DNA of 64,000 bases from positions 1-64,000 of IMG/VR virus record IMGVR_UViG_3300030099_006908. One strand, 5' to 3'. Below, one piece after another: positions 1 to 59,189 of this stretch (position 1 is the stretch's first letter; each line of letters begins with the position of its first letter). The translations under genes were made by a program, and so were the position numbers. This DNA is from a virus. The notes beneath the pieces were generated by a model, which saw nothing but the letters and a program-made list of their open reading frames with translations, was not told where the DNA came from and did no database searches.

Positions 1-6
1 CTTCAT

Positions 7-42
7 GGGAGGCGGGGATTTTCCCCGCTTCCCCCCTTTTTT
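7..42 (+). terminator. Rho-independent terminator
   Basis: GGGAGGCGGGGA/TCCCCGCTTCCC stem followed by a T-tract. Confidence 0.8.
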
Positions 43-49
43 ATTAAAG

Positions 50-78
50 TTGACAGGGTTGGCTTGTCGATGTATAAT
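50..78 (+). promoter_or_regulatory. sigma70-type promoter
   Basis: Perfect TTGACA-N17-TATAAT. Confidence 0.85.
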
Positions 79-99
79 AGGGGATTGGAGGCTCTGCCT

Positions 100-186
100 A
101 TGAATGAAGGTTGGTTGTTGTTAATTGGTTTACTTGGTGTTATAGCTGGTTGTCTTGAATCTATTAGGGGAGATATAGAAAGATGA
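100..186 (+). CDS. small membrane peptide (28 aa, MNEGWLLLIGLLGVIAGC...)
   Basis: GGAGG SD, hydrophobic stretch, stop overlaps next ATG (ATGA); not in ORF track. Confidence 0.55.
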   Translation: MNEGWLLLIGLLGVIAGCLESIRGDIER

Positions 187-626
187 AAAAGGTTTTCGTA
201 TATTACAATTTGCACAAGCACAAATGGTCCGTGAAGGATGTAAAAACAGGTCGTGTAATTGGTCATTATTACGATATATCGCTTTATAACGCCAAGTTCA
301 AAGTAAGTGAGGCCGGAAGGGCTCGCGTATTAAAAGAGAAGCGTAAAAACGTGCATGCGGGCGTTGAGGGCTATCTGACTAAGCATACCCTACCTCGAAA
401 AATGGACGGCACGATTCTCTGGGCGTCTCAATCGGAGCGGCACAAGGTAACGTACGACCCCTATAAGTACGCTACCTTCGTTGCCGGTCCAGATAAAAAG
501 CCTATCCACGAAGCCTACTTTGTGAGAATGGTGGCCTACGGTACGAACTGGGGCGGTAAAGGGGAGTATCATGCCCCAGATGTTACAGCGACAGTGCCGG
601 TGGTGAAGGGCCTGATAACTGCTTGA
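183..626 (+). CDS. conserved phage hypothetical protein
   Basis: 147 aa, GGAG SD; VYYNLHK..WSVK and KRKNVHA motifs typical of a phage family of unknown function. Confidence 0.8.
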   Translation: MKKVFVYYNLHKHKWSVKDVKTGRVIGHYYDISLYNAKFKVSEAGRARVLKEKRKNVHAGVEGYLTKHTLPRKMDGTILWASQSERHKVTYDPYKYATFVAGPDKKPIHEAYFVRMVAYGTNWGGKGEYHAPDVTATVPVVKGLITA

Positions 627-633
627 AATAAAT

Positions 634-720
634 GAATTGGGGATAAGCAGCTATCCTCGAATGTTACGGGCTCAGAGATAGCCGCACACGCAGGCTCGTA
701 ACTTCCCCGATTCTTTTTTT
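634..720 (+). ncRNA. structured non-coding element with possible pseudoknot, ending in a U-tract
   Basis: Stems 634-643/704-713 and 663-671/694-702; GCTATC (650-655) complementary to loop GATAGC (677-682). Confidence 0.5.
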
Positions 721-721
721 C

Positions 722-801
722 CTAAACCCTTATGGCGTAAGGACTTAGGGGGCGCCGGGCCGCCGCGCCAAACGTAAACTGTGTGATAACAACGACTTAC
801 G
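722..801. promoter_or_regulatory. paired imperfect palindromic protein-binding sites
   Basis: Two TAAAC-N14-GACTTA sites at 723-747 and 775-799, separated by a GC-rich spacer. Confidence 0.55.
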
Positions 802-829
802 TTGACTAATTCTAAAGTTTTGGTACAAT
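802..829 (+). promoter_or_regulatory. sigma70-type promoter for tRNA-Arg
   Basis: TTGACT-N16-TACAAT with TG extension. Confidence 0.65.
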
Positions 830-848
830 ATAACCGATAAAGATAAAT

Positions 849-921
849 GCACCTGTAGCTCAATGGATAGAGCATCTGACTTCTAATCAGAGGGTTGCAG
901 GTTCGAATCCTGCCAGGTGTA
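849..921 (+). tRNA. tRNA-Arg(UCU)
   Basis: Canonical cloverleaf, anticodon loop CTTCTAA, GGTTCGAATCC T-arm; CCA not encoded. Confidence 0.97.
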
Positions 922-1095
922 CTACCCGTACCACCCCCATGGTGGTCATAGTGATAGTCAGCGAAATTTTACATCATGTGTGAATAGTCTGGCATAATTT
1001 ATAGCAGAGGAAATGAATTAGGGAAATGTTTTTGTCTCGCCCAATCAATCATCATTGGCAATCGTTGGTAGTCAGCGAAAGTCTGGGGCATCTGA

Positions 1096-1169
1096 GGGCA
1101 TTTAGCTCAGTTGGTTAGAGCGTCTCGTTGACGTCGAGAAGGTCATTGGTTCGAATCCAGTAATGCCCA
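1096..1169 (+). tRNA. tRNA-Val(GAC)
   Basis: Canonical cloverleaf, anticodon loop TTGACGT. Confidence 0.97.
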
Positions 1170-1280
1170 TTTGAGAGAATAAGAATGATTGTGGCAAGGA
1201 AATGCGCATGAGTGTGTGTCTCACGCAACCTAACAACATTGCGGTCATGGCGATAGTTAGCGAAATTTTAGGGCCTGGGG

Positions 1281-1308
1281 TTGACAAAGCAGGAAGACGG
1301 GCTATAAT
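1281..1308 (+). promoter_or_regulatory. sigma70-type promoter
   Basis: TTGACA-N16-TATAAT. Confidence 0.85.
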
Positions 1309-1314
1309 ATTATT

Positions 1315-1430
1315 GGTGAGCCTCGCGGGCGCAGACTACATTGCCAAACGGTGAGTAGTCTGTCGCTCCATCGGACATAGGTACTTGCCGGTGACTGTTC
1401 AGGTCTAACGTGAGTACCGTGTCCATTTTT
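1315..1430 (+). ncRNA. twin-hairpin ncRNA or 5' leader
   Basis: Hairpins 1327-1368 and 1373-1424 share TAC(A)TTGCC and AACG(G)TGAGTA arms; promoter upstream, T-tract downstream. Confidence 0.6.
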
Positions 1431-1444
1431 TGAGGAGATATAAA

Positions 1445-1642
1445 ATGAAGAAGTTGGTATTATTCCTGCTAATAAGTGTAGTCGCTGTCGAAAGCGGTTA
1501 CGCTTTTATTTTTGGTGGTGGGGCATGGAGGCGTCATTACAGGAGACATAGAAGGGGTGCATTGTATAGTGCAGAGAAGGTAGTCGGACCTCCATCTTTG
1601 CAGGCGGTTAGAGATGCCGTAGATGAGGAAATAAGGAGGTAA
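1445..1642 (+). CDS. small secreted Arg-rich protein
   Basis: GAGGAG SD before ATG 1445; signal-peptide-like MKKLVLFLL...YA; stop overlaps the tRNA-Ile 5' end. Confidence 0.7.
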   Translation: MKKLVLFLLISVVAVESGYAFIFGGGAWRRHYRRHRRGALYSAEKVVGPPSLQAVRDAVDEEIRR

Positions 1643-1710
1643 AGGTAAGCTGGTTGCATCCGGCGCTCTTATAAGGCGCTATTAGTCTGGTTCGATTCCA
1701 GATACCTCTA
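1635..1710 (+). tRNA. tRNA-Ile(UAU), non-canonical D-arm
   Basis: Acceptor GGAGGTA/TACCTCT+A; anticodon stem GCGCT/GGCGC with loop CTTATAA; T-arm TCTGG-TTCGATT-CCAGA. Confidence 0.85.
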
Positions 1711-1782
1711 CTGGGTAATTTACTTCCTGATAGAAAGGAGGTGGGATTACGTCTAAGGATTGGTCATCCTGTCTAATAGACT

Positions 1783-1834
1783 GGCCCGCAGGGTTTTATT
1801 GTATCAAATAAGAACCTGTAGGGCCTCTTTTTTT
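1783..1834 (+). terminator. long-stem terminator
   Basis: GGCCCGCAGGGTTTTATT/AATAAGAACCTGTAGGGCC plus T7. Confidence 0.7.
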
Positions 1835-1874
1835 GTCTCAGCTAAACGAACCAATTTGTCGTGATTGGTCATAG

Positions 1875-1988
1875 TCAGCGTAATTTTAGAGCAGGCAGAA
1901 TAAAACGTGGGGGCGTGGAAAGGTTAGTGGTAAGACTAGGACAAGCCCCCAAAGCCATCGCTATGATAACTCTCCACTTTCTTGTCAT
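1875..1988 (-). CDS. possible 37-aa peptide (MTRKWRVIIAMALGAC...)
   Basis: Lies downstream of a minus-strand consensus promoter; no clear SD. Confidence 0.3.
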   Translation of the reverse strand: MTRKWRVIIAMALGACPSLTTNLSTPPRFILPALKLR

Positions 1989-2007
1989 AGAATGTGATTC
2001 TAAATAT

Positions 2008-2035
2008 ATTATAAACCAAAACACAAAATTGTCAA
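2008..2035 (-). promoter_or_regulatory. sigma70-type promoter (minus strand)
   Basis: TTGACA-N16-TATAAT on the reverse complement. Confidence 0.8.
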
Positions 2036-2475
2036 CTAAAAAACTGGCTGGTAAAAAAGTGTGTACCTTGCCATTGGCTTAATAGAGAGAATACAGAACT
2101 GCAATAGCAGGTAGAATATGAGTGGAGGCATAAACCACATAGTAATAATCTATACCCCTCTGCTATCGGCGGCAGCGTGTATATGATAATCTATACCTGA
2201 ATAGTAAATCTATATTCCCCCCCTGGCAATTTTGCTGCAAAAAAAGAGAACAAAACCGACTTCCCATATCTGATAAAAGACAGTATATGAGCCTAGAGCC
2301 AGGGTTTCTCCACACTCTCTAGGATTACAATGATATGAAATGTCAAGCTATCCACAAGTCCACTCATATCAGAGCGTATATGCCCCAACGAATTAACGGC
2401 GGGCGAGGTATACCAATTTTCAGCACTCAGGTCTGTTGTAGGTTTGGCACTTATAACCTGTGGGCAAATGAGGCC

Positions 2476-2655
2476 CTATTTTCTTCTTCTTCTTTTTCTT
2501 TTCATCCGACTAGATGGAGGCGACCATCCATACAATTTCTTCCACTCTTGTTTCTCTTTATTAGAAACACCATACTGAGCGTTCTGTGCCTTCTCCCTAC
2601 GGGGATTGGTTATCCCGTTCATGGAAGTGCCGGTTTTTTTGTTTTTTCTTGGCAT
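2476..2655 (-). CDS. small very basic protein, probably leaderless
   Basis: MPRKNKK...RKRRRRK; ATG 7 nt after the TATAAT of a minus-strand promoter. Confidence 0.7.
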   Translation of the reverse strand: MPRKNKKTGTSMNGITNPRREKAQNAQYGVSNKEKQEWKKLYGWSPPSSRMKRKRRRRK

Positions 2656-2662
2656 ATAGAGT

Positions 2663-2690
2663 ATTATAGTCCACTTTTCTTTTCTGTCAA
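2663..2690 (-). promoter_or_regulatory. sigma70-type promoter (minus strand), one of a divergent pair
   Basis: TTGACA-N16-TATAAT on the reverse complement. Confidence 0.85.
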
Positions 2691-2703
2691 GGCAAAAAAT
2701 AGC

Positions 2704-2731
2704 TTGACACATACATTCTTCCTGCTATAAT
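2704..2731 (+). promoter_or_regulatory. sigma70-type promoter, one of a divergent pair
   Basis: TTGACA-N16-TATAAT. Confidence 0.85.
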
Positions 2732-3002
2732 TACATAGAAACACGCCCTTTTACGGGTTTACGAAACAAAATTGTGGGTTTTGAACCCCATTTGCACGTT
2801 TAAGCGGCAACTTTGCGGGTTTTTGGCCCATTTGTATGCTCGTTGTGTAGTGCCGAGGTTGAAGCATTTATTCTGTTAATTCATACCTAATCTTCTTCCT
2901 CGCCTACACTTCTATTATAGTGTATACTATACTACCTATTCATTGTATGTCTATTATGGGTAATATAGAAAGCCATAGAAAAATAAAGAAAGGGTAAGAA
3001 AA

Positions 3003-3173
3003 ATGGAGAAAAATATACAAATAACTCTTTGCCGTGGACAAGGATGTTGTCCTGTCGTAACTATTTCTGAAAAAGGTGCGAAAATTACTGATGATAATGG
3101 TGGTGAAGTGACGATAACTAATGTAGAGTTAAGTATTCTAAAAGAAAAGCTAAATGAGCTTGACAACGTATAA
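3003..3173 (+). CDS. small hypothetical protein (MEKNIQITLCRGQGCCPVV...)
   Basis: 56-aa ORF read by eye; C-x4-CCP motif. Confidence 0.65.
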   Translation: MEKNIQITLCRGQGCCPVVTISEKGAKITDDNGGEVTITNVELSILKEKLNELDNV

Positions 3174-3187
3174 TCATCTGTTACAAT
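3160..3187 (+). promoter_or_regulatory. sigma70-type promoter
   Basis: TTGACA-N16-TACAAT. Confidence 0.75.
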
Positions 3188-3193
3188 TAGGAG

Positions 3194-3308
3194 CATGAGG
3201 CTGAGTGGTGGCTTGCAATCAAGGGTCCAGTTGCGCCACACTGAACGGTATTATGTATAAGTTGTCCAAGACACTTGCTAGCAAACATAACGCCTGCCTC
3301 ATTTTTTT
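3194..3308 (+). ncRNA. putative ~110-nt three-way-junction small RNA
   Basis: Own promoter; closing stem ATGAGGC/GCCTCAT plus T7; internal stems GTGGTG/CGCCAC and TTATGT/ACATAA. Confidence 0.6.
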
Positions 3309-3323
3309 ACTAAAGGTTATTTT

Positions 3324-3431
3324 ATGAAGGAAAAGCTAAAAGAAATTTTTGTTCTTGCTACGGTTATATTTGCAGCCGTAGGAATAGGTGCAGTGGTTTA
3401 TGCGATTGTTGAGCTAATTGCACTTCGATGA
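3324..3431 (+). CDS. small membrane protein
   Basis: MKEKLKEIFVLATVIFAAVGIGAVVYAIVELIALR, one TM segment. Confidence 0.55.
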   Translation: MKEKLKEIFVLATVIFAAVGIGAVVYAIVELIALR

Positions 3432-3509
3432 TAGACGACCTTCCTATATGGCTGATTACAGTCAGACTTTTACCGTTTATAATATATGGCATTTACTTGG
3501 GAGTGATAT

Positions 3510-3824
3510 ATGCGAAACCATCCAGACAATAAGTATATCTGGGGAGCAGAGGAAATCCTTATTCTAGGTGATGAACGTCTTGACTATATTCACCAGTTTA
3601 AGGGATACGAGACCGATAAGGGGTGGAACATAACCGTACAGGCTCTTATTCGTACAAAATTCCAGGCATATAAATGGGGGACGACTCGTAGGTACTTCAA
3701 GAAAGACAGATTCCCTCACGCTAATACTGTCAAACAAGTAATTCAGGAAGTCGTAAATCTTCCCTATATGATTGACCCTCTCACTAGAGAATATGAAGGA
3801 TATAAAGATGCAATTAAATCTTGA
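3510..3824 (+). CDS. hypothetical protein
   Basis: 104-aa ORF with GGAG SD. Confidence 0.75.
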   Translation: MRNHPDNKYIWGAEEILILGDERLDYIHQFKGYETDKGWNITVQALIRTKFQAYKWGTTRRYFKKDRFPHANTVKQVIQEVVNLPYMIDPLTREYEGYKDAIKS

Positions 3825-3978
3825 TATAAGCACCATAATCATGGTGTTCTGTCTGTACGGTGTATGGACTTTCAGTAAAGATATTGGTCACTTAATTTGT
3901 GACGTTATATTAAAAGTCTGGAAGGCCAACAATGAGCAAGAGAAATCTGAACCTGAGCAATCTGTTCCTAGCATTTAG
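3808..3978 (+). CDS. small membrane protein
   Basis: Hydrophobic segment; overlaps neighbours in operon fashion. Confidence 0.55.
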   Translation: MQLNLDISTIIMVFCLYGVWTFSKDIGHLICDVILKVWKANNEQEKSEPEQSVPSI

Positions 3979-4057
3979 TACTATTACATTATACATACTT
4001 TTCGTTGGGGGAATAATATACTTCAAATGTTTTTAGGATTCTTTTGGGAGAGAGGAT

Positions 4058-4711
4058 ATGGAATTGGATTTTGGAAATGTCGAGCAGAAGATAAACTCTG
4101 TTAGACAGTCTACGGTTGACCGTTACTGTGACTATTGGTACGGTATCGAGCCGCGAAGCACAGAGGATAAGTGGCGACGATGGTTGTTTGCCTTTGTATC
4201 TATTCGCGCCCAATGGAAGGCGAATAAAGAGTCCTACCGCATGTTAGCCGGTGAAAATTGGCAGACTAAAGATGAACTGTCTAAGATACTCCACGACTCT
4301 CGAATTGGATTGGTTCCGATGCGTGAGCGAGCTATCTGGGAGTTTACGCAGGAAGTAAAAAAGGATAAGTCTATCATCGAACCAGAACTGGACGATACAT
4401 GGCAAACATGGAGAAATAGGTTAGTCGATAAATTCTTTGGGATTGGATTAGCCAAAGTATCTTTTGCGATGGAAATGTGCTACCCGTTGTATTGTGGAGT
4501 TGTTTGTCTGGATACGCATATTCTACGAATGTATGGCGTTGACCCTCGCAAGGGTTGCGGCAAGGCTTTATATGAGGAAATGGAGGCACATTGGTTAAAA
4601 ATTTGTCTTGACAAGGGGTATCCATCTGCTATAACTAGACATATCCTATGGGATAAGATTCAGAACAAGCGGAATACAAGATACTGGTCGCATGTATTGG
4701 AGGCAGCATAA
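4058..4711 (+). CDS. HhH-family DNA glycosylase (Ogg/8-oxoguanine glycosylase-like)
   Basis: HhH motif FGIGLAKVSF and downstream VCLDTHILR (catalytic Lys/Asp pattern of Ogg2-type enzymes). Confidence 0.75.
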   Translation: MELDFGNVEQKINSVRQSTVDRYCDYWYGIEPRSTEDKWRRWLFAFVSIRAQWKANKESYRMLAGENWQTKDELSKILHDSRIGLVPMRERAIWEFTQEVKKDKSIIEPELDDTWQTWRNRLVDKFFGIGLAKVSFAMEMCYPLYCGVVCLDTHILRMYGVDPRKGCGKALYEEMEAHWLKICLDKGYPSAITRHILWDKIQNKRNTRYWSHVLEAA

Positions 4712-4888
4712 ATGGCTCACGAGAAAAACTACACATTTAAGATTACTATTTTCGGCCAAGACTTTAAAGCCAAGGAAACATTCTTAATTGAGGATGTAAC
4801 AGAGCGAGAGGCGAATAAGATTGCTAAAGCTGACCCTCGCGTTATCGAAGCTGGCGATAAATTCTGGTCTATGAACCAAGAGAGGTAG
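4712..4888 (+). CDS. small hypothetical protein
   Basis: MAHEKNYTFKITIFG...; GGAGG SD; fills the gap between genes. Confidence 0.65.
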   Translation: MAHEKNYTFKITIFGQDFKAKETFLIEDVTEREANKIAKADPRVIEAGDKFWSMNQER

Positions 4889-5076
4889 TGATGAATTACA
4901 GGAAATATACTCACGGTTTTGTGACACAGGTATTTGAGAATGGTAAATGTGTCGAGCAGCACTTCACCGCTGGCGACCAAGTTGAACATGAGGATTATGA
5001 GACAGGTGAACCTATTGAGCCTGTTGGCGACGAGACTTATTACCCCTTTTTAATGGAGCAACCAAAGGATGAGTAG
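4888..5076 (+). CDS. hypothetical protein
   Basis: Coupled ORF with SD. Confidence 0.65.
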   Translation: MMNYRKYTHGFVTQVFENGKCVEQHFTAGDQVEHEDYETGEPIEPVGDETYYPFLMEQPKDE

Positions 5077-5251: not shown

Positions 5252-5397
5252 GAGATTATGTTTTCTGGCTATTGGCAGCGACGATGTTAATTATGATGGG
5301 TGGATGTAAAACAACCGTAGTCTTATCGGCTAACAGGTATTTTGAACAAGAACAAACTCATACGAGTGCAGAAATAAGAATGGAAAAAGAATGGTAA
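5248..5397 (+). CDS. small putative lipoprotein
   Basis: MRDYVFWLLAATMLIMMGGC lipobox-like; ATGA overlap; not in ORF track. Confidence 0.6.
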   Translation: MRDYVFWLLAATMLIMMGGCKTTVVLSANRYFEQEQTHTSAEIRMEKEW

Positions 5398-6363: not shown

Positions 6364-6804
6364 ATGCTTGTTGACATAGCCAAATACAAAATGCAGAATT
6401 GCGATTTGAATGAGGCTAAGAAGGGCCAAACTGCTCATTATGTGGAATTAAATCCCATGTGGGCAGTAAAGTTCTTCGAGCATAAAGAGGACAGGGACCA
6501 CACATATCGCCTACAGAAGTATGCAAGTGAATCATTCGCGGCACCTCCTGTGGGCGAGGTTCTTGTTGTCACTAGACAGAATAAGATAGGTCTAAGCACT
6601 ACATTTTGGGGATACATAACTGGTGTAGCAAAGGTTGACAAAGACATTTCTTCTGATAAAATGAAAGAGTTGTCCGACAAGCTACTCAGCATCGGAATCA
6701 AGTGGAACGATAAGCGCAGAGCAAACTGCGGTTACTACAACGGTAAATTAGTTTGCATAGACTTTGACTGTGAGGTTATAGAACATGAACATATTTTACC
6801 TTGA
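6364..6804 (+). CDS. minimal protein-kinase-like protein
   Basis: AVK, AAPPV, catalytic-loop-like WNDKRRANCG and LVCIDFD. Confidence 0.65.
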   Translation: MLVDIAKYKMQNCDLNEAKKGQTAHYVELNPMWAVKFFEHKEDRDHTYRLQKYASESFAAPPVGEVLVVTRQNKIGLSTTFWGYITGVAKVDKDISSDKMKELSDKLLSIGIKWNDKRRANCGYYNGKLVCIDFDCEVIEHEHILP

Positions 6805-7273
6805 CCATGACCAGACTACTTGTGCAAAGTATCACAATGACAAGCATTGTGTCAAAATGATATTAGAGTACGCACAGTTGCTATGTACGGCACACAGAGA
6901 ACTAGACGGTGACGATTGTATGCACCCTGATGTACTCTACAAAGCAACGCACAAGAATCATCCATCAGCAGTGTGGGCAAGAGCATCAAGCAGAAATTAT
7001 CTTTGGCTATACTACCTATGGAGAGAGTTGTGCAAAGAATACACATATAGATATGGCAGGGAACACGCATCATGGACTAAGCTAGGCTACCTTATGGCTC
7101 GTGTTCCAGAGAACATTGATGTAATGCCAGAGTTTACGCCTCCTACACCAGCGATGCCAGATGAGTGCAAGATTGGCCCAACATCGCTAGAGAGTTATAG
7201 GCACTACTATAATACAGAAAAAAGACATTTAGCAACATGGAAAAAACGTCCAGTTCCGGTATGGTATGACTAA
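6785..7273 (+). CDS. pyrimidine-dimer DNA glycosylase-like protein (DenV/endonuclease V superfamily)
   Basis: MNIFYLD, DKHCVKMILEYAQLLCTAH and YKATHKNHPSAVW signature. Confidence 0.8.
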   Translation: MNIFYLDHDQTTCAKYHNDKHCVKMILEYAQLLCTAHRELDGDDCMHPDVLYKATHKNHPSAVWARASSRNYLWLYYLWRELCKEYTYRYGREHASWTKLGYLMARVPENIDVMPEFTPPTPAMPDECKIGPTSLESYRHYYNTEKRHLATWKKRPVPVWYD

Positions 7274-10431: not shown

Positions 10432-10496
10432 AATAGTCTAATATAATATAGAGTTAGCGTAAAGTATTAACATTTTTTATGAGGGAGATTTAGGAT

Positions 10497-53089: not shown

Positions 53090-54226
53090 ATGCCTAATAT
53101 ACTAATACTTGGAGCGGGAGGCATCGGCCTCCCAATCGCATCAGCGTTAAAGCACGAAGAATATAATCTTGTTCTGTCTGATTATTCTGAGGATGCCATT
53201 GGTAAAGCTAAGGACTATTTCGGTAGAACTAAGTTTGACAGTGAATGCTCCCTTGACTTTCATGTTGGCGATGCCAAGGATTATGTTCTAGAGAATAAGC
53301 ATGACTTTGACATAGTGGTATCAGCTTTGCCATACTACATGAACAAAGAAATAGCGTTCGCGTGTGTTTCCTCTTGTATAGCTTACGTTGACCTTGGCGG
53401 GCATGTAGACACAACCAATTATATTCGCAAGATTACTGAGGAAATTGGATGCGCTCCAGTGGCTAGTGACCAAGGACTAGCTCCAGGCTTAGTTAATATC
53501 TGTGCGGAAGAGGCTTTTGAAGCCGTTAAGGAAAACAAATACCGTAGTGCAAAAATAAAGATGGCCGTAGGCGGGCTTCCAGAAAAGGTGGGATTAAATC
53601 CTCTAGACTACATTGTTACTTGGTCTATTGATGGTTTGATTAACGAGTACAGGGGAGAGGCAGAGATTCTGTTGGGGGCAGAAAAGAAGAACGTACCCAC
53701 ACTCACTGGCCTAGAAACGATGACTGTTGACGGAGATGAGCTTGAGGCGTTTTACACAGCCGGTGGAAGCTCTCACACAATACAATCTATGCTTAACCAA
53801 ACCTCCCGTCCAATACCTGACGTTACATACAAGACGTTGCGATACCCAGGACACTTGGAGATGATAAAGTGGCTCATGGAAGAAATTGAGATGGACACAC
53901 AAGAGTTGGCACATCTATTTAAGTATGGTTGCGCGGCTTTGAATGAAAAGGATATTGTGAAGTTCTATGTCGAGGCTACTAATGGGAGCTTGTCTTACAA
54001 AAGAGAGCATACCTTCTATGCAAGCGAAGAGTTCTCTGCTATGCAGCGGTCTACCGCATACAGCGCAGCAGCGGCGATTCAGACAATGTATATAAATAGG
54101 CCGATACCAAACGACTCTTTTGCCCTCGATTATTCATACTTCTGTAGAGATTTGTTTCATGAGCGTTTTAGAGATGCTTTAAATAGAGACCGGCCAGAGA
54201 AAGAGAAAGAGTGGTTGGTCTCATGA
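53090..54226 (+). CDS. saccharopine dehydrogenase family oxidoreductase
   Basis: ILGAGGIG Rossmann fold, SALPY, YVDLGG, GLAPGL, VGGLP, WSIDGLINEY, KTLRYPGH. Confidence 0.9.
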   Translation: MPNILILGAGGIGLPIASALKHEEYNLVLSDYSEDAIGKAKDYFGRTKFDSECSLDFHVGDAKDYVLENKHDFDIVVSALPYYMNKEIAFACVSSCIAYVDLGGHVDTTNYIRKITEEIGCAPVASDQGLAPGLVNICAEEAFEAVKENKYRSAKIKMAVGGLPEKVGLNPLDYIVTWSIDGLINEYRGEAEILLGAEKKNVPTLTGLETMTVDGDELEAFYTAGGSSHTIQSMLNQTSRPIPDVTYKTLRYPGHLEMIKWLMEEIEMDTQELAHLFKYGCAALNEKDIVKFYVEATNGSLSYKREHTFYASEEFSAMQRSTAYSAAAAIQTMYINRPIPNDSFALDYSYFCRDLFHERFRDALNRDRPEKEKEWLVS

Positions 54227-56184
54227 CATTTTTCCCACTTCATGTTCACAGTCACGACAGCCTTCTTGATGGTCTTAGTAAGCCTAAAGATATTGCTAAG
54301 AGATGTACAGAGCTTGGTCTAAAAGGATGCGCTTTAACAGACCACGGCGTTCTCTCTGGTGCAGTCAGCTTCGTAGAAGCCATGAAGTCTGCCGGACTAA
54401 AACCTATACTTGGATGCGAGTTCTATATTTGTGAGGGCGACCCTACTGACAAGGAGAATAGGACTCGCTCCAACACACACCTCGTCGTGCTTGCCAAGAA
54501 CAATCAAGGCTGGCAAGACCTAATCGCTGCAACATCCCAGTCCAATCACCCAGACTATTTCTACTATGCTCCAAGACTAGACTTGGCTACACTCAAGAAG
54601 TTTTGCACAGGAAACTGGATTGCGTTTAGTGGACACATGGGTTCGCATCTAGCTAACGATATGTTCATAGACCACAAAGAAGCCTACTCTGCCCAAAGCT
54701 ACGACGAAGCAACCAAGATGGTTGATAAAGATTGGGTAAATAAGGTTTCTGGTAAAGCTAAGGAACTTGAGGATGTCTTTGGCAAAGGAAACTTCTTCCT
54801 AGAAATACAGCTAATAGACGTAGACAATCTTCCTGCTTCTGGCGTAGTCGCAAAAGGGCTTAGATACCTAAGTAAGAAAATCGACATTCCATGTGTCGCA
54901 ACACCAGACGCTCACTATGCTTGTCCAGAGGATGCAGATGACCAGAGAGTTCTTCTGTCTAATCACCCAAGCATAGATACTCCTCTCAAGGACATCTACA
55001 AGAAGATGGTTTCAGGAGACGATATAAGCCTGGGAGCTTTCTTTAAGTCCAGAAATTATTACATTCCTGGACATGACGAAATGATGAAACTCCACACAGA
55101 GGAAGAGGTTGCAAATACAGAGAAGATTGCCGATATGTGCGAAGAATATACAATTACTGGAAAACCGATGCCGCCTAGATTTCCCCTGCCAGAAAAAGTA
55201 ACAGCAATTGACAGGCTCAGAGAAAGATGCCGTGAGGGTTGGCAAAAAAGATGGCCCGCAATTAAAAGCGTTATAGACAGCACTGAACACACGAAAGAAG
55301 AGTATGCCGAACGATTTGAGATGGAAATATCCATTCTTGAGAACGCAAATCTAGCGGACTACTTCTTAATTGTTGACGACATCATCAACTGGGCTAGAAA
55401 AGACGGTCAGCTTACAGGAGCCGGTAGAGGCTCTGCTGACGGCTCTCTAATTCTATATCTTTTAGAAGTAGGTCATATAGACCCAATCAAACACGATTTA
55501 ATGTTCGAGAGATTTTACAACGCCGGACGAAATACAGCAGACAGAGTGTCCCTTCCTGATGTGGATATGGACTTCGAGAAGCTTGGTCGTGAGCGTATAA
55601 TTGGCTATATAAACGACAGGTTTGGTGAAGATAGAGTTTCTCAAATGATTACGTTTAGCAAGATGCAAGGACGGGCTGTACTGCAAGATGTAATGAGAGC
55701 GCACAGCGCATGTAGTCCAGAAGAGAGAAACAGAATCACAAAGAACATACCCGATGAAGCAGACATTTCTGACCAGCTTGAAGATATGCGTCAAGCAGAC
55801 AAAGATTCTGGCGGCGACGGTAGCGCTAGCATAATTCAGTGGGCTTTGGAGAACAGAGAAGAGGACTTGAAACAGTGGTGCTACCTTGGCGAAAACGGAA
55901 ACCTTCAGGGTCCAATGTCAAAGATATTTGAACAAGCTATACGCATGGAGGGAACAAAGCGTTCTCGCAGTAAACACGCAGCGGGAATTGTGATTGCCAA
56001 CGAACCTCTTGCTAAGATTTGTCCCATGGTCTACGACAAAAGCTCTGGCGAAAGCATTGCTGGAATGGAAATGAATGACCTGGAGTCTATGGGACATATC
56101 AAGTTTGACATTCTTGGAATTGCAATTCTAGATAAGATTCACGGAGTTCAAGACCTATTGTCTACCGGAGAGTTTCGTGATTGA
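54223..56184 (+). CDS. dnaE: DNA polymerase III alpha, N-terminal half (PHP plus palm)
   Basis: HVHSHDSLLDG, TDHG, GRGSA, PDVDMDF, HAAG, KFDILG. Confidence 0.93.
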   Translation: MTFFPLHVHSHDSLLDGLSKPKDIAKRCTELGLKGCALTDHGVLSGAVSFVEAMKSAGLKPILGCEFYICEGDPTDKENRTRSNTHLVVLAKNNQGWQDLIAATSQSNHPDYFYYAPRLDLATLKKFCTGNWIAFSGHMGSHLANDMFIDHKEAYSAQSYDEATKMVDKDWVNKVSGKAKELEDVFGKGNFFLEIQLIDVDNLPASGVVAKGLRYLSKKIDIPCVATPDAHYACPEDADDQRVLLSNHPSIDTPLKDIYKKMVSGDDISLGAFFKSRNYYIPGHDEMMKLHTEEEVANTEKIADMCEEYTITGKPMPPRFPLPEKVTAIDRLRERCREGWQKRWPAIKSVIDSTEHTKEEYAERFEMEISILENANLADYFLIVDDIINWARKDGQLTGAGRGSADGSLILYLLEVGHIDPIKHDLMFERFYNAGRNTADRVSLPDVDMDFEKLGRERIIGYINDRFGEDRVSQMITFSKMQGRAVLQDVMRAHSACSPEERNRITKNIPDEADISDQLEDMRQADKDSGGDGSASIIQWALENREEDLKQWCYLGENGNLQGPMSKIFEQAIRMEGTKRSRSKHAAGIVIANEPLAKICPMVYDKSSGESIAGMEMNDLESMGHIKFDILGIAILDKIHGVQDLLSTGEFRD

Positions 56185-56767: not shown

Positions 56768-57492
56768 ATTATAACTCTATATGCTGTTACGATTATGAGA
56801 CTGGTTCTCCCGACTCATCTACGTGTTCTATCATACAAATAGCCGCAGAGATGATACACGGAAGGAATTTAAATGTAGTTGACAAATTTTCTGCCTATGT
56901 CCGCCCGGACTTTGACGACAAAGAATCCACGACAGACGAAACAATAGATTGGCATTGCAGGAACAAAGGCATGTCAAAAAAGAAGTTTGTAGATATGCTA
57001 AACGAGTGCCCTCCAATAAATGTTGTATGGAAAAACTTTTCCTCTTGGATTGACAAATACAACTGGGGTAAGACTAATAAGAGTGGCTATCATGCTCCGG
57101 TGTCTGCTGGATACAATATACTTGGATTTGACAATCCTATTACTGATAGGCACTGCAAAATATTTGGACCGACTGAAAAAGACAGGCGCAGCGGCGAAGA
57201 GAGGCCAAGGATGTTTAATCAAATATACAGCTTTGATTTAATGCAGCATGTCTGGTATTGGTTTGAGAATAACAGCGAGCTTAAAAACCAAAAGCTAACA
57301 ACCGTCTTAGAGTACATGGGTGTGCCGGAGGAGGTGACTGCAAACGCTCATGACGCAGAGTTTGATGTTGAGTGGACATCTAAGGTCATCATAAAGCTGT
57401 TGAAAACATCTAGATGGATGACTGGATGGAATGAACAAAAGCAGAAAAGAAGACTTGAATTTGCTAACGCATTTGCACAGGAGTTTAAATGA
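56764..57492 (+). CDS. DEDDh 3'-5' exonuclease (DnaQ-like)
   Basis: DYETG, GYN...FD, AHDA..D. Confidence 0.88.
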   Translation: MNYNSICCYDYETGSPDSSTCSIIQIAAEMIHGRNLNVVDKFSAYVRPDFDDKESTTDETIDWHCRNKGMSKKKFVDMLNECPPINVVWKNFSSWIDKYNWGKTNKSGYHAPVSAGYNILGFDNPITDRHCKIFGPTEKDRRSGEERPRMFNQIYSFDLMQHVWYWFENNSELKNQKLTTVLEYMGVPEEVTANAHDAEFDVEWTSKVIIKLLKTSRWMTGWNEQKQKRRLEFANAFAQEFK

Positions 57493-59189
57493 GTAAGGTT
57501 AGATGGCCGTGTGGATGTGAGCTTCCAGTAAAGAGTTGTTCTGACACACCAATGGTGATTAACGTAGAGTTCGGAGATACGCTTCCTAAAGGTATAGAGC
57601 TAGATGTCTACAGCATGAATCTTAATTGTGAAGCAACTTGGGACATGATATGCAGCGGCAGGACGAAAGGCGTTTTTCAGCTAGAGAGCGCACTTGGTCG
57701 TCAATGGGCCAAGAAACTAGAACCAAGAAGCATTGAAGAGCTTGGAGCGCTAGGCGCTTTACTTCGTCCAGGGTGCCTTAGAGCCATGTCTGGAAATCCA
57801 CCAAAGAGCATGACGCAAAGATATTGCGATAGAAAGCATGGTGTTGAACAAGTCGTTTATCCTCACGAATCATTGGAACCGATTCTTAAAAAGACGCAAG
57901 GCGTACTAACTTTTCAAGAGCAAGCCATGAAGATAGCTGTAGTTCTTGCTGGTTTCAATGAGCAGCAAGCGGACATCCTCCGCAAGGCTATCGGTAAAAA
58001 GAAAGCCGATGTTATGCATGAGGTTAAGAAGTCCTTTCTTGAGGGCGCTAAAAAAACAGGTATAGTATCAGAAGAACTGGCTGAGGAAATTTTTGGCTGG
58101 ATTCAGGAGTCCCAGAGATACTCTTTTAACAAAAGCCACGCAGACGCATATGCGCTCAATGGATATTGGAGCGCGTTTTGCAAAACACATATGCCGCTTG
58201 AGTTTTATTGCTCTTGGCTTAGGGGTGCAGCGTGGAAAGGCGCAAAGCAATACGAGGAAATTTACGACCTAGTAAATGACGCAAAGGTAAACAACATAGA
58301 CGTTCTTCCCCCAACGCTTGCAGACAAAAGAAACACTTTCTACATCAAAGACAAGAAGGTTTATTTCGGTCTTTCTAGCATCAGAGGCATAGGCTCTGCT
58401 GTAATCGAGAAGATAGTAGAAAAGCTAACTGATGTAGAAAAAAAGCTGGGCAGAGGTATTGGCGCATGGATGTGGCTTGAATATTTAAAGTATGGAACAG
58501 AATGTGTATCATCCAACGTAACCGAGGGGATGATAAAGGCTGGGGCTTTAGACTTCTTTGAGCGTTCAAGAAACGAGATGCTTTATGAGTATTCTATATG
58601 GTCGCAACTTAGCCCAACAGAAAAAAAGTGGATTGTAAATGAATACAGCGGATACAAACTGATTGAAGCATTAAAGCGGTGTCAGCCAAAAAGAGTGATG
58701 AAAAATAAAGTCCAGGTTGCTGGTGGAGGATGTGTAAATGATAAGCGCTCTAATTTTGTAGGAGATTTAATCACATCCTTAAAAAATCCACCTCACAAGT
58801 TGCAAGATAGCATGGATTGGATTGCTTGGAATGAACAAAAAACACTGGGCGCTCCAATAACCTGTAGCAGAGTGGATGCGCTGGAAAGGGGAATAGAGGC
58901 TAATTGTACCTGCAAGGAATTCATTACGACAAAAAGAAAAGACTATATGAAGTTTGCTGTAGAAGTCACCAAGGTGAAAGTAGTAAAAACAAAAAATGGA
59001 AAAAACCCTGGTAAAGAAATGGCTTTTCTTACCCTAGAAGATAACAGTTGCTCTTTAGATGACGTAGTTTGTTTTCCAGATATTTTTCAAGAGTGTCGAG
59101 ACGCCATATATGAAGGAAACACAATATTGGTTCAGGGAGATAGAGGACGAAATGACTCTCTTGTTGTCGGTCAAATATGGCAAATTTAA
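57489..59189 (+). CDS. dnaE: DNA polymerase III alpha, C-terminal half (fingers, HhH, OB)
   Basis: GVFQLES, RPG, FQEQAM, AD.LRKAIGKK, YSFNKSHA, GL..IRGIG, MAFLTLED. Confidence 0.93.
   Translation: MSKVRWPCGCELPVKSCSDTPMVINVEFGDTLPKGIELDVYSMNLNCEATWDMICSGRTKGVFQLESALGRQWAKKLEPRSIEELGALGALLRPGCLRAMSGNPPKSMTQRYCDRKHGVEQVVYPHESLEPILKKTQGVLTFQEQAMKIAVVLAGFNEQQADILRKAIGKKKADVMHEVKKSFLEGAKKTGIVSEELAEEIFGWIQESQRYSFNKSHADAYALNGYWSAFCKTHMPLEFYCSWLRGAAWKGAKQYEEIYDLVNDAKVNNIDVLPPTLADKRNTFYIKDKKVYFGLSSIRGIGSAVIEKIVEKLTDVEKKLGRGIGAWMWLEYLKYGTECVSSNVTEGMIKAGALDFFERSRNEMLYEYSIWSQLSPTEKKWIVNEYSGYKLIEALKRCQPKRVMKNKVQVAGGGCVNDKRSNFVGDLITSLKNPPHKLQDSMDWIAWNEQKTLGAPITCSRVDALERGIEANCTCKEFITTKRKDYMKFAVEVTKVKVVKTKNGKNPGKEMAFLTLEDNSCSLDDVVCFPDIFQECRDAIYEGNTILVQGDRGRNDSLVVGQIWQI

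Follow-up and report, generated by a model that had tools for sequence, protein, structure and literature searches.

The four short repeats near the left end of this viral DNA belong to a previously undescribed boundary element, 45 nt long and oriented, that occurs across a whole lineage of phages. The window analyzed here, 64 kb in length, comprises the first part of a 94.8-kb viral record (IMGVR_UViG_3300030099_006908) estimated to be 35% complete. Its four repeat units, designated W1–W4, are diverged ("worn") members of a family whose canonical element measures exactly 45 nt from GTCTC to AGTCAGC. As to function, the sequence tentatively favors a transcribed boundary signal whose sequence would be recognized by a putative protein that ends or cuts the upstream RNA; the same units may also supply homology for cassette change.

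In the window, the 11-nt word AGT(C/T)AGCG(A/T)AA was found on the + strand at 956, 1070, 1255 and 1873, four sites within 920 nt. These are the sites that the first-pass annotation had placed at 954, 1069, 1253 and 1871, counting from the preceding AT or TA. An additional match at 10452 lies in a promoter region and is unrelated to the repeat units. The five matches compare with 0.17 expected in the whole window, and no shuffle reached five. TGTCTC is present at 1033–1038, 1217–1222 and 1834–1839, that is, 31, 32 and 33 nt before AGT, exactly as had been reported for three of the copies. W1 (924–968, +) is a shortened copy with the 3′ box and no GTCTC box; the remaining three units have both ends (GTCTC and AGTCAGC). 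W2 (1030–1082, +), W3 (1214–1267, +) and W4 (1831–1885, +) contain elements proper of 43 nt (1034–1076), 44 nt (1218–1261) and 45 nt (1835–1879), respectively. W2 and W3 share a common word about 30 nt upstream and CTGGGG downstream, with tRNA-Val between them, and the earlier description of copies 2 and 3 as extended and bracketing this tRNA is correct. All units are co-oriented, with start-to-start spacings of 114, 185 and 618 nt. This spacing agrees with the earlier statement that the repeats are not a CRISPR array, from which the element also differs in its fixed parts of 5 and 8–11 nt and in a core that is conserved in the wider family. A repeat finder independently recovered the same families (D1/D2, to which W1 was assigned).

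The units punctuate a tRNA operon. A sigma70-type promoter at 802–829 (+; 10 of 12 hexamer matches in a consensus scan, with TG before the −10 box), the position of which is kept in relatives, serves the tRNA-Arg/tRNA-Val unit. W1 lies directly 3′ of tRNA-Arg(TCT) (849–922, +; ARAGORN; Rfam tRNA, 76.7 bits). The end of W2 is separated by a 19-nt gap from tRNA-Val(GAC) (1096–1169, +; ARAGORN and Rfam), a cassette between units 2 and 3, and W3 starts 48 nt past this tRNA. The next sigma70-type promoter (1281–1308, +; 12 of 12 hexamer matches) follows W3 after 19 nt and serves a leader, a 66-aa ORF and tRNA-Ile(TAT) (1635–1711, +; ARAGORN); W3 is the only window unit with a promoter behind it. 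W4 starts 123 nt past tRNA-Ile and sits at the end of the rightward transcription unit, where a leftward promoter (2008–2035, −; 12 of 12 hexamer matches) converges on it. Because W1–W3 lie within a single promoter-to-promoter tRNA unit, they must be transcribed. The perfect convergent promoter facing W4 implies that no rightward gene follows this unit. The claim that each tRNA is followed by a copy applies to W1, W3 and W4, after tRNA-Arg, tRNA-Val and tRNA-Ile, and fails for W2, which precedes tRNA-Val.

Several further features were observed around the units. The stretch from 1890 to 2300, about 400 nt, is 81% conserved with the close relative L011 and shows no preferred reading frame; a GC-rich hairpin near 1907–1952 lies in this conserved stretch together with the leftward promoter (2035–2008). 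The stretch may give rise to a small leftward RNA that converges on W4. Another leftward promoter, also perfect, lies at 2690–2663 next to a rightward one (2704–2731). In the window (183–626), as in L011 and the canonical relative G005, the region begins with a 147-aa ORF (phrog_586). Coupling of the element to this protein family was rejected, as 79 of the 80 viral-contig loci of the family have no element.

Scanning IMG/VR with a loose end-to-end pattern gave chiefly chance matches together with a set of near-identical 45-nt elements, and a tighter pattern retrieved more than 120 stretches, many of them on contigs of 200–256 kb. Thirty-six canonical copies were aligned without gaps (alignment A1). 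A position matrix derived from A1 located 292 sites (225 distinct) at 122 loci in 2.9 Mb of uncultured-phage DNA, and zero sites in a reversed-sequence control. A covariance model, R1, was also built from A1, from which sequences of the window lineage were absent. In the 64-kb window, R1 detected exactly W1–W4, with E values from 1.6e-7 to 2.4e-3, while the next match had an E value of at least 1. W4, aligned without gaps, is the window unit nearest to the canonical family (42.1 bits, E = 1.6e-7), followed by W2 (28.6 bits, E = 2.2e-4), W3 (26.1 bits, E = 8.5e-4) and W1 (24.2 bits, E = 0.0024). The model also detects the units of L011. Further copies were not found in the whole 94.8-kb record. 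The profile search that had been suggested at the outset thus gives four copies in the record and a large family in other phages, and the proposed repeat family with fixed ends is borne out by 225 distinct copies in 122 loci elsewhere. What had been named as evidence against such a family, namely no further copies, no positional conservation, or consistent translation as decayed paralogous small ORFs, was not encountered: copies are many, position is conserved and no consistent reading frame exists.

The complete genomes that carry the element are 230–244 kb long with terminal repeats, and they encode the polymerase of the window at 49–51% identity; in the L011 record the same polymerase is 96% identical. 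Each complete genome holds 5–8 copies, on one strand and clustered in a region of 15–40 kb that contains tRNAs, very small ORFs and many strong promoters. As the polymerase is shared at about 50% identity among carrier genomes, the element is conserved across a deep phage lineage. The carriers are a family-level lineage of uncultured giant phages (about 230–270 kb), with the element in a tRNA/small-gene early region. Genes of the record containing the window include rIIA, ribonucleotide reductase, a DnaB-type helicase and a phrog_405-type polymerase that is split into two ORFs (54211–56184 and 57489–59189) 1.3 kb apart.

The element was found in marine, freshwater and other metagenomes. GenBank phage isolates contained no copy of the element, and only the tRNAs of the region gave matches there. 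Rfam cmscan of window positions 1–5000 and six canonical loci (E up to 1) gave no match on any unit, and a full-text literature search for the motif words returned nothing relevant. A bacterial genome collection yielded 15 matches in MAG contigs of unrelated taxa, one contig being 248 kb long. These are most simply explained as mis-binned phage DNA and give no clue to the host.

The canonical element consists of the GTCTC box, a C-rich and then G/T-rich middle containing a 5-nt direct repeat, and the 3′ box ATAGTCAGC. Invariant or near-invariant letters are GT in the 5′ box, one A in mid-element and AGTCAG(C) in the 3′ box. The core is polar, with a 5′ half that is C/A-rich and G-poor (41% C and 14% G, relative to a background of 19% and 25%) and a G/T-rich 3′ half. 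Across the wider family only about 10 core positions vary. The variable core described by the first-pass annotation is therefore a property of the window lineage, in which orthologues differ, and not of the family, in which the core is conserved.

This distinction bears on the suggestion that the units are guide-like small RNAs, with a variable core that would pair with a target and fixed ends that would form handles. The 31–33 nt cores of the window lineage, wholly different between orthologous copies, are what such guides would look like. Nevertheless, the conservation of the core in the family is at odds with it, core composition is biased and not random, core words of 10–12 nt match the phage's own record at chance level only, and the copies form no regular array and have no structure. 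Guide- or spacer-like function of the core is essentially excluded.

An imperfect dyad in mid-element resembles a hairpin of 5–8 bp. Its pairs covary no more than column composition gives, and compensatory change is absent. RNAalifold found no consensus structure. The mean folding energy was −11.3 kcal/mol compared with −10.0 kcal/mol for shuffles, with a pairing probability of about 0.3, and the units of the window lineage folded no better than shuffles (mean z-score +0.28). No U-run follows the element. A structured RNA or hairpin is thus unsupported by pair counts, by RNAalifold and by folding relative to shuffles. With no selected structure despite strong conservation, the element is conserved as sequence and not as structure.

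Coding potential was also considered. Two frames have conserved stops and the third is open in 196 of the 225 canonical copies, which would be the mark of decayed paralogous small ORFs. The rate is near that expected for any frame without conserved stops, however, and the open frame reaches only about 13 codons upstream of the element and 8 codons past it. Moreover, no frame is kept across units that are 43, 44 and 45 nt long, and copies abut tRNAs and promoters. The sequence analysis essentially excludes decayed ORFs, the least probable of all the explanations considered.

At some loci, the 3′ word is present in extra copies. In L397 (about 188–240, −) the 8-nt word occurs four times in tandem directly after a unit, and in L362, L359, L367 and L121 (in the last at 5325–5360, −) two or three additional 3′ words lie within 40 nt. 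In view of these tandem and extra copies beside units, the 3′ word may act as an independent binding word. A sub-family of the element (L330 13580–13610 and 14458–14490; L172, L406 and L413) has a conserved 25-nt downstream extension, in which an A-run comes after a second GTCAG word. Comparison by eye with IHF, boxA, sigma54 and ECF-type promoters and with hammerhead or other ribozyme cores gave no convincing match.

The strongest covariation in the family is one of identity, not complementarity. A pentamer composed of TGG and two free letters recurs 9 nt downstream with the identical two letters (mutual information 1.29 bits). The first free letter is identical in 85% of 147 distinct haplotypes, where 26% is expected and the maximum in 10,000 shuffles was 41%. 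A search of the element and of 200 nt to each side gave no Watson–Crick cis partner for the direct repeat. Columns 33 and 40 are complementary, as an isolated pair. Pairing with the CCA end of the adjacent tRNA, in the manner of a T-box, was rejected because an identical tRNA-Glu end stands beside five different letter pairs. Slipped-strand length variation was likewise rejected: 141 copies have a distance of 11 nt, 11 copies one of 10 nt and a single copy one of 33 nt, and the distance never differs by plus or minus one 9-nt repeat unit.

The boundary-signal model leaves this identity-covarying direct repeat unexplained. An unlikely alternative is that the element is a new sequence-read cis signal, recognition of which requires two identical but free pentamers 9 nt apart. 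Two identical free pentamers would imply a templated or realigning step and not ordinary recognition by a protein or of a hairpin. A polymerase, nuclease or ligase would then pair a short strand with one pentamer and subsequently with the other, and the fixed GTCTC and AGTCAGC boxes would be cut or entry points. Whatever reads it, identity covariation is a type of constraint outside what standard covariation tools look for.

The surroundings of the copies were compared across the 122 loci. All 1221 tRNAs have the same orientation as the element and none is opposite. In 34 of 242 copies the element starts no more than 16 nt from a tRNA 3′ end, mostly at 2–6 nt. Of 239 copies, 112 are followed first by a sigma70-type promoter (median distance 15 nt), 78 by a start codon, often 12–23 nt off, and four by a tRNA, 6–8 nt off; the remaining 45 copies have no downstream feature within 160 nt. 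In 63 copies the −35 box follows the element at a near-fixed 13–15 nt, which could reflect coupling to the promoter. Most promoters of the region have no element. The varied downstream partners, together with the placement of W4, suggest that the element serves the upstream part or acts alone and is not part of a promoter.

These data bear on two rival explanations. The main one, which we regard as somewhat unlikely, is that a phage or host protein binds the element as duplex DNA, recognizing the dyad and AGTCAGC, and that the element would thereby serve, for example, as an operator, an upstream promoter module or a roadblock. Such a site would account for the fixed length of 45 bp, for the −35 box at 13–15 nt in 63 copies and for the additional 3′ words stacked beside some units. 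The strong conservation of primary sequence with no RNA structure, including a dyad that lacks compensatory change, suits such a duplex site just as well as it does the favored RNA signal. Nevertheless, a third of the copies have no downstream promoter and precede a start codon by 12–23 nt, others lie directly beside a tRNA, before or after it, W4 is met by a convergent unit, and the majority of the region's promoters do without the element. The −35 distances of 8–9, 13–15, 21–23 and 41 nt are not separated by whole helical turns, and the stacked 3′ words have a period of 8 nt. Furthermore, a protein site has no need of two free but identical pentamers.

The other is a middle-type promoter for a phage-reprogrammed RNA polymerase, with a GGATT-like box 17 nt upstream of the GTC in the 3′ box. 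In favor, the element has the orientation of the genes and often stands 10–25 nt before a start codon, tRNA or sigma70 promoter, as W2 does at 19–20 nt ahead of tRNA-Val in all relatives, and relatives encode a sigma-like protein. That protein has region 2 only, however, as late sigmas do, and a promoter at W4 would fire into the convergent unit. Start codons 12–15 nt past the box would leave almost no leader, just 5–8 clustered sites occur per genome, and the putative upstream box is not conserved in the window lineage. A middle-type promoter is accordingly very unlikely.

The gene for the sigma-like protein (L331 1087–1785, −, with equivalents in G002 and G004) encodes 225–232 aa with sigma70 region 2 only and is located on the opposite strand, 10–20 kb away from the cluster of elements; the product is likely a late sigma factor. 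The early promoters of canonical relatives contain a conserved (G)CCGATAA-like box between the −35 and −10 boxes, as at 1275–1303, 3860–3888 and 11097–11125 of L330 (G005 139500–157500). In L099, a locus with three canonical elements, positions 6795–6831 gave a near-threshold Rfam match to abiF RNA (34.2 bits; gathering score 37).

Scanning metagenomes for the sub-terminal word common to W1 and W3 retrieved 91 stretches, many of them marine, of which 21 have the same operon. The order in these 21 relatives is promoter, tRNA-Arg, U1, U2, tRNA-Val, U3, promoter, leader, ORF, tRNA-Ile and U4, so that unit position is strongly conserved and W3 and W4 have orthologues among them (W3 in all 21). The distance from U2 to tRNA-Val is always 19–20 nt. 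The ends of the units are conserved and the cores differ widely between orthologues. The sub-terminal blocks fall into a few types that reappear at more than one unit position, and orthologous cores change by block replacement. This recurrence of blocks at different positions points to conversion between units.

Gain and loss were also observed. In L011 only, tRNA-Val is missing between units 2 and 3 and about 40 unrelated nt are found instead; the tRNA content between repeats, which the first-pass annotation had singled out for comparison, varies in this one case. An additional unit follows U3 in L011, L380 and L392. Over all loci, homology breakpoints are about 1.8-fold enriched at 20–100 nt from elements and depleted inside them, which is weak evidence since the null was uniform and intergenic position alone might yield the enrichment. 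Window positions 2303–2661 are replaced in L011 by about 120 unrelated nt, with no units at the edges.

Dedicated recombination or transposition sites (integron attC, REP/RAYT or an IS200-type end), bounding mobile cassettes and cut by a specific enzyme, could produce co-oriented units between cassettes, conserved ends around a less conserved middle, and the presence or absence of tRNA-Val and of an additional unit among relatives. In five records (three complete genomes and two partial) no match over the cut-off to tyrosine recombinase (PF00589), no serine recombinase and no match to Y1 transposase (PF01797) was found. The two ends of the element are direct and not inverse repeats, a selected hairpin is absent, and in the 21 relatives the order is kept and change is rare. 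Dedicated sites are therefore highly improbable, and any shuffling would proceed by ordinary homologous recombination. The earlier idea of cassette-shuffling sites survives in part: the loss of tRNA-Val, the additional units and the swapped sub-terminal blocks are in keeping with it, and the expected site-specific recombinase was not found.

The known repeats of this kind differ from the element in the same respects. Like integron attC, it stands at cassette 3′ ends, is always co-oriented and has conserved ends around a variable middle, but it comes without an integrase, inverse core sites or a folded bottom-strand hairpin. Bacterial REP/BIME sequences are likewise short, recur at the ends of genes in intergenic DNA that is transcribed, and have a short conserved word beside a dyad. 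In contrast, REPs form true palindromes, are found in either orientation and are accompanied by RAYT transposases, none of which applies here.

The reading we favor, if only tentatively, is that of a transcribed boundary signal; RNA-processing signals had been one of the original suggestions, and units that punctuate a tRNA operon are compatible with either termination or cutting. The element would be co-transcribed with tRNAs and early genes and recognized in its primary sequence by a putative protein. This protein may end the upstream RNA by factor-dependent termination or cut it by endonucleolytic processing, with the RNA end predicted to fall shortly ahead of the promoter, start codon or tRNA that comes next. 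Secondarily, the units could act as short homologies for phage recombination, through which tRNA or gene cassettes and whole units might be gained, lost or converted.

Sequence-read, orientation-dependent RNA signals that have no terminator hairpin are known in Rho-dependent terminators, nut sites and boxA. The element resembles these in its unstructured, C-rich, G-poor stretch and in its position between early transcription segments and beside tRNAs. Its conserved boxes do not match boxA, and the C-rich stretch of about 15–20 nt is far shorter than known Rho loading (rut) sites.

The closest parallel in location is the promoter-early stem-loop (PeSL) cassettes of T4-type phages (Arbiol et al. 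2010, PMC2839356; Comeau et al. 2014, PMC4122927). Like these, the element is a repeated module of constant orientation, set between genes in the plastic early region of a large lytic phage. It often lies just ahead of a strong sigma70-type promoter, as PeSLs do, and may likewise be associated with the gain, loss or replacement of small cassettes between close relatives; no dedicated recombinase is known for either. By analogy, cassette exchange at the units may occur as proposed for PeSL cassettes. However, a PeSL is defined by a true terminator stem-loop, GC-rich and group-specific, joined to a promoter, and recombination between PeSL repeats forms mini-circles, whereas in the element it is 45 nt of primary sequence that is conserved, down to 50% polymerase identity, and neither a U-run nor a selected hairpin is present. 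Only about half of its copies have a promoter behind them, and the majority of the region's promoters have no copy. The phage of the window, which has rIIA and RNR genes but a split DnaE-like polymerase, may not be T4-type.

The plasticity of early regions in large lytic phages, where cassettes are insulated and exchanged, is only partly understood. To our knowledge, the terminator hairpin is the sole mechanism so far proposed for such cassettes, and it cannot explain this element. The element provides a clean and widely conserved case, of fixed length, with fixed boxes and 5–8 copies per genome, maintained while the polymerase has drifted to 50% identity. If it does specify factor-dependent RNA ends, it would offer a handle on the punctuation of early transcripts and on the processing of tRNA precursors in this uncultured lineage.
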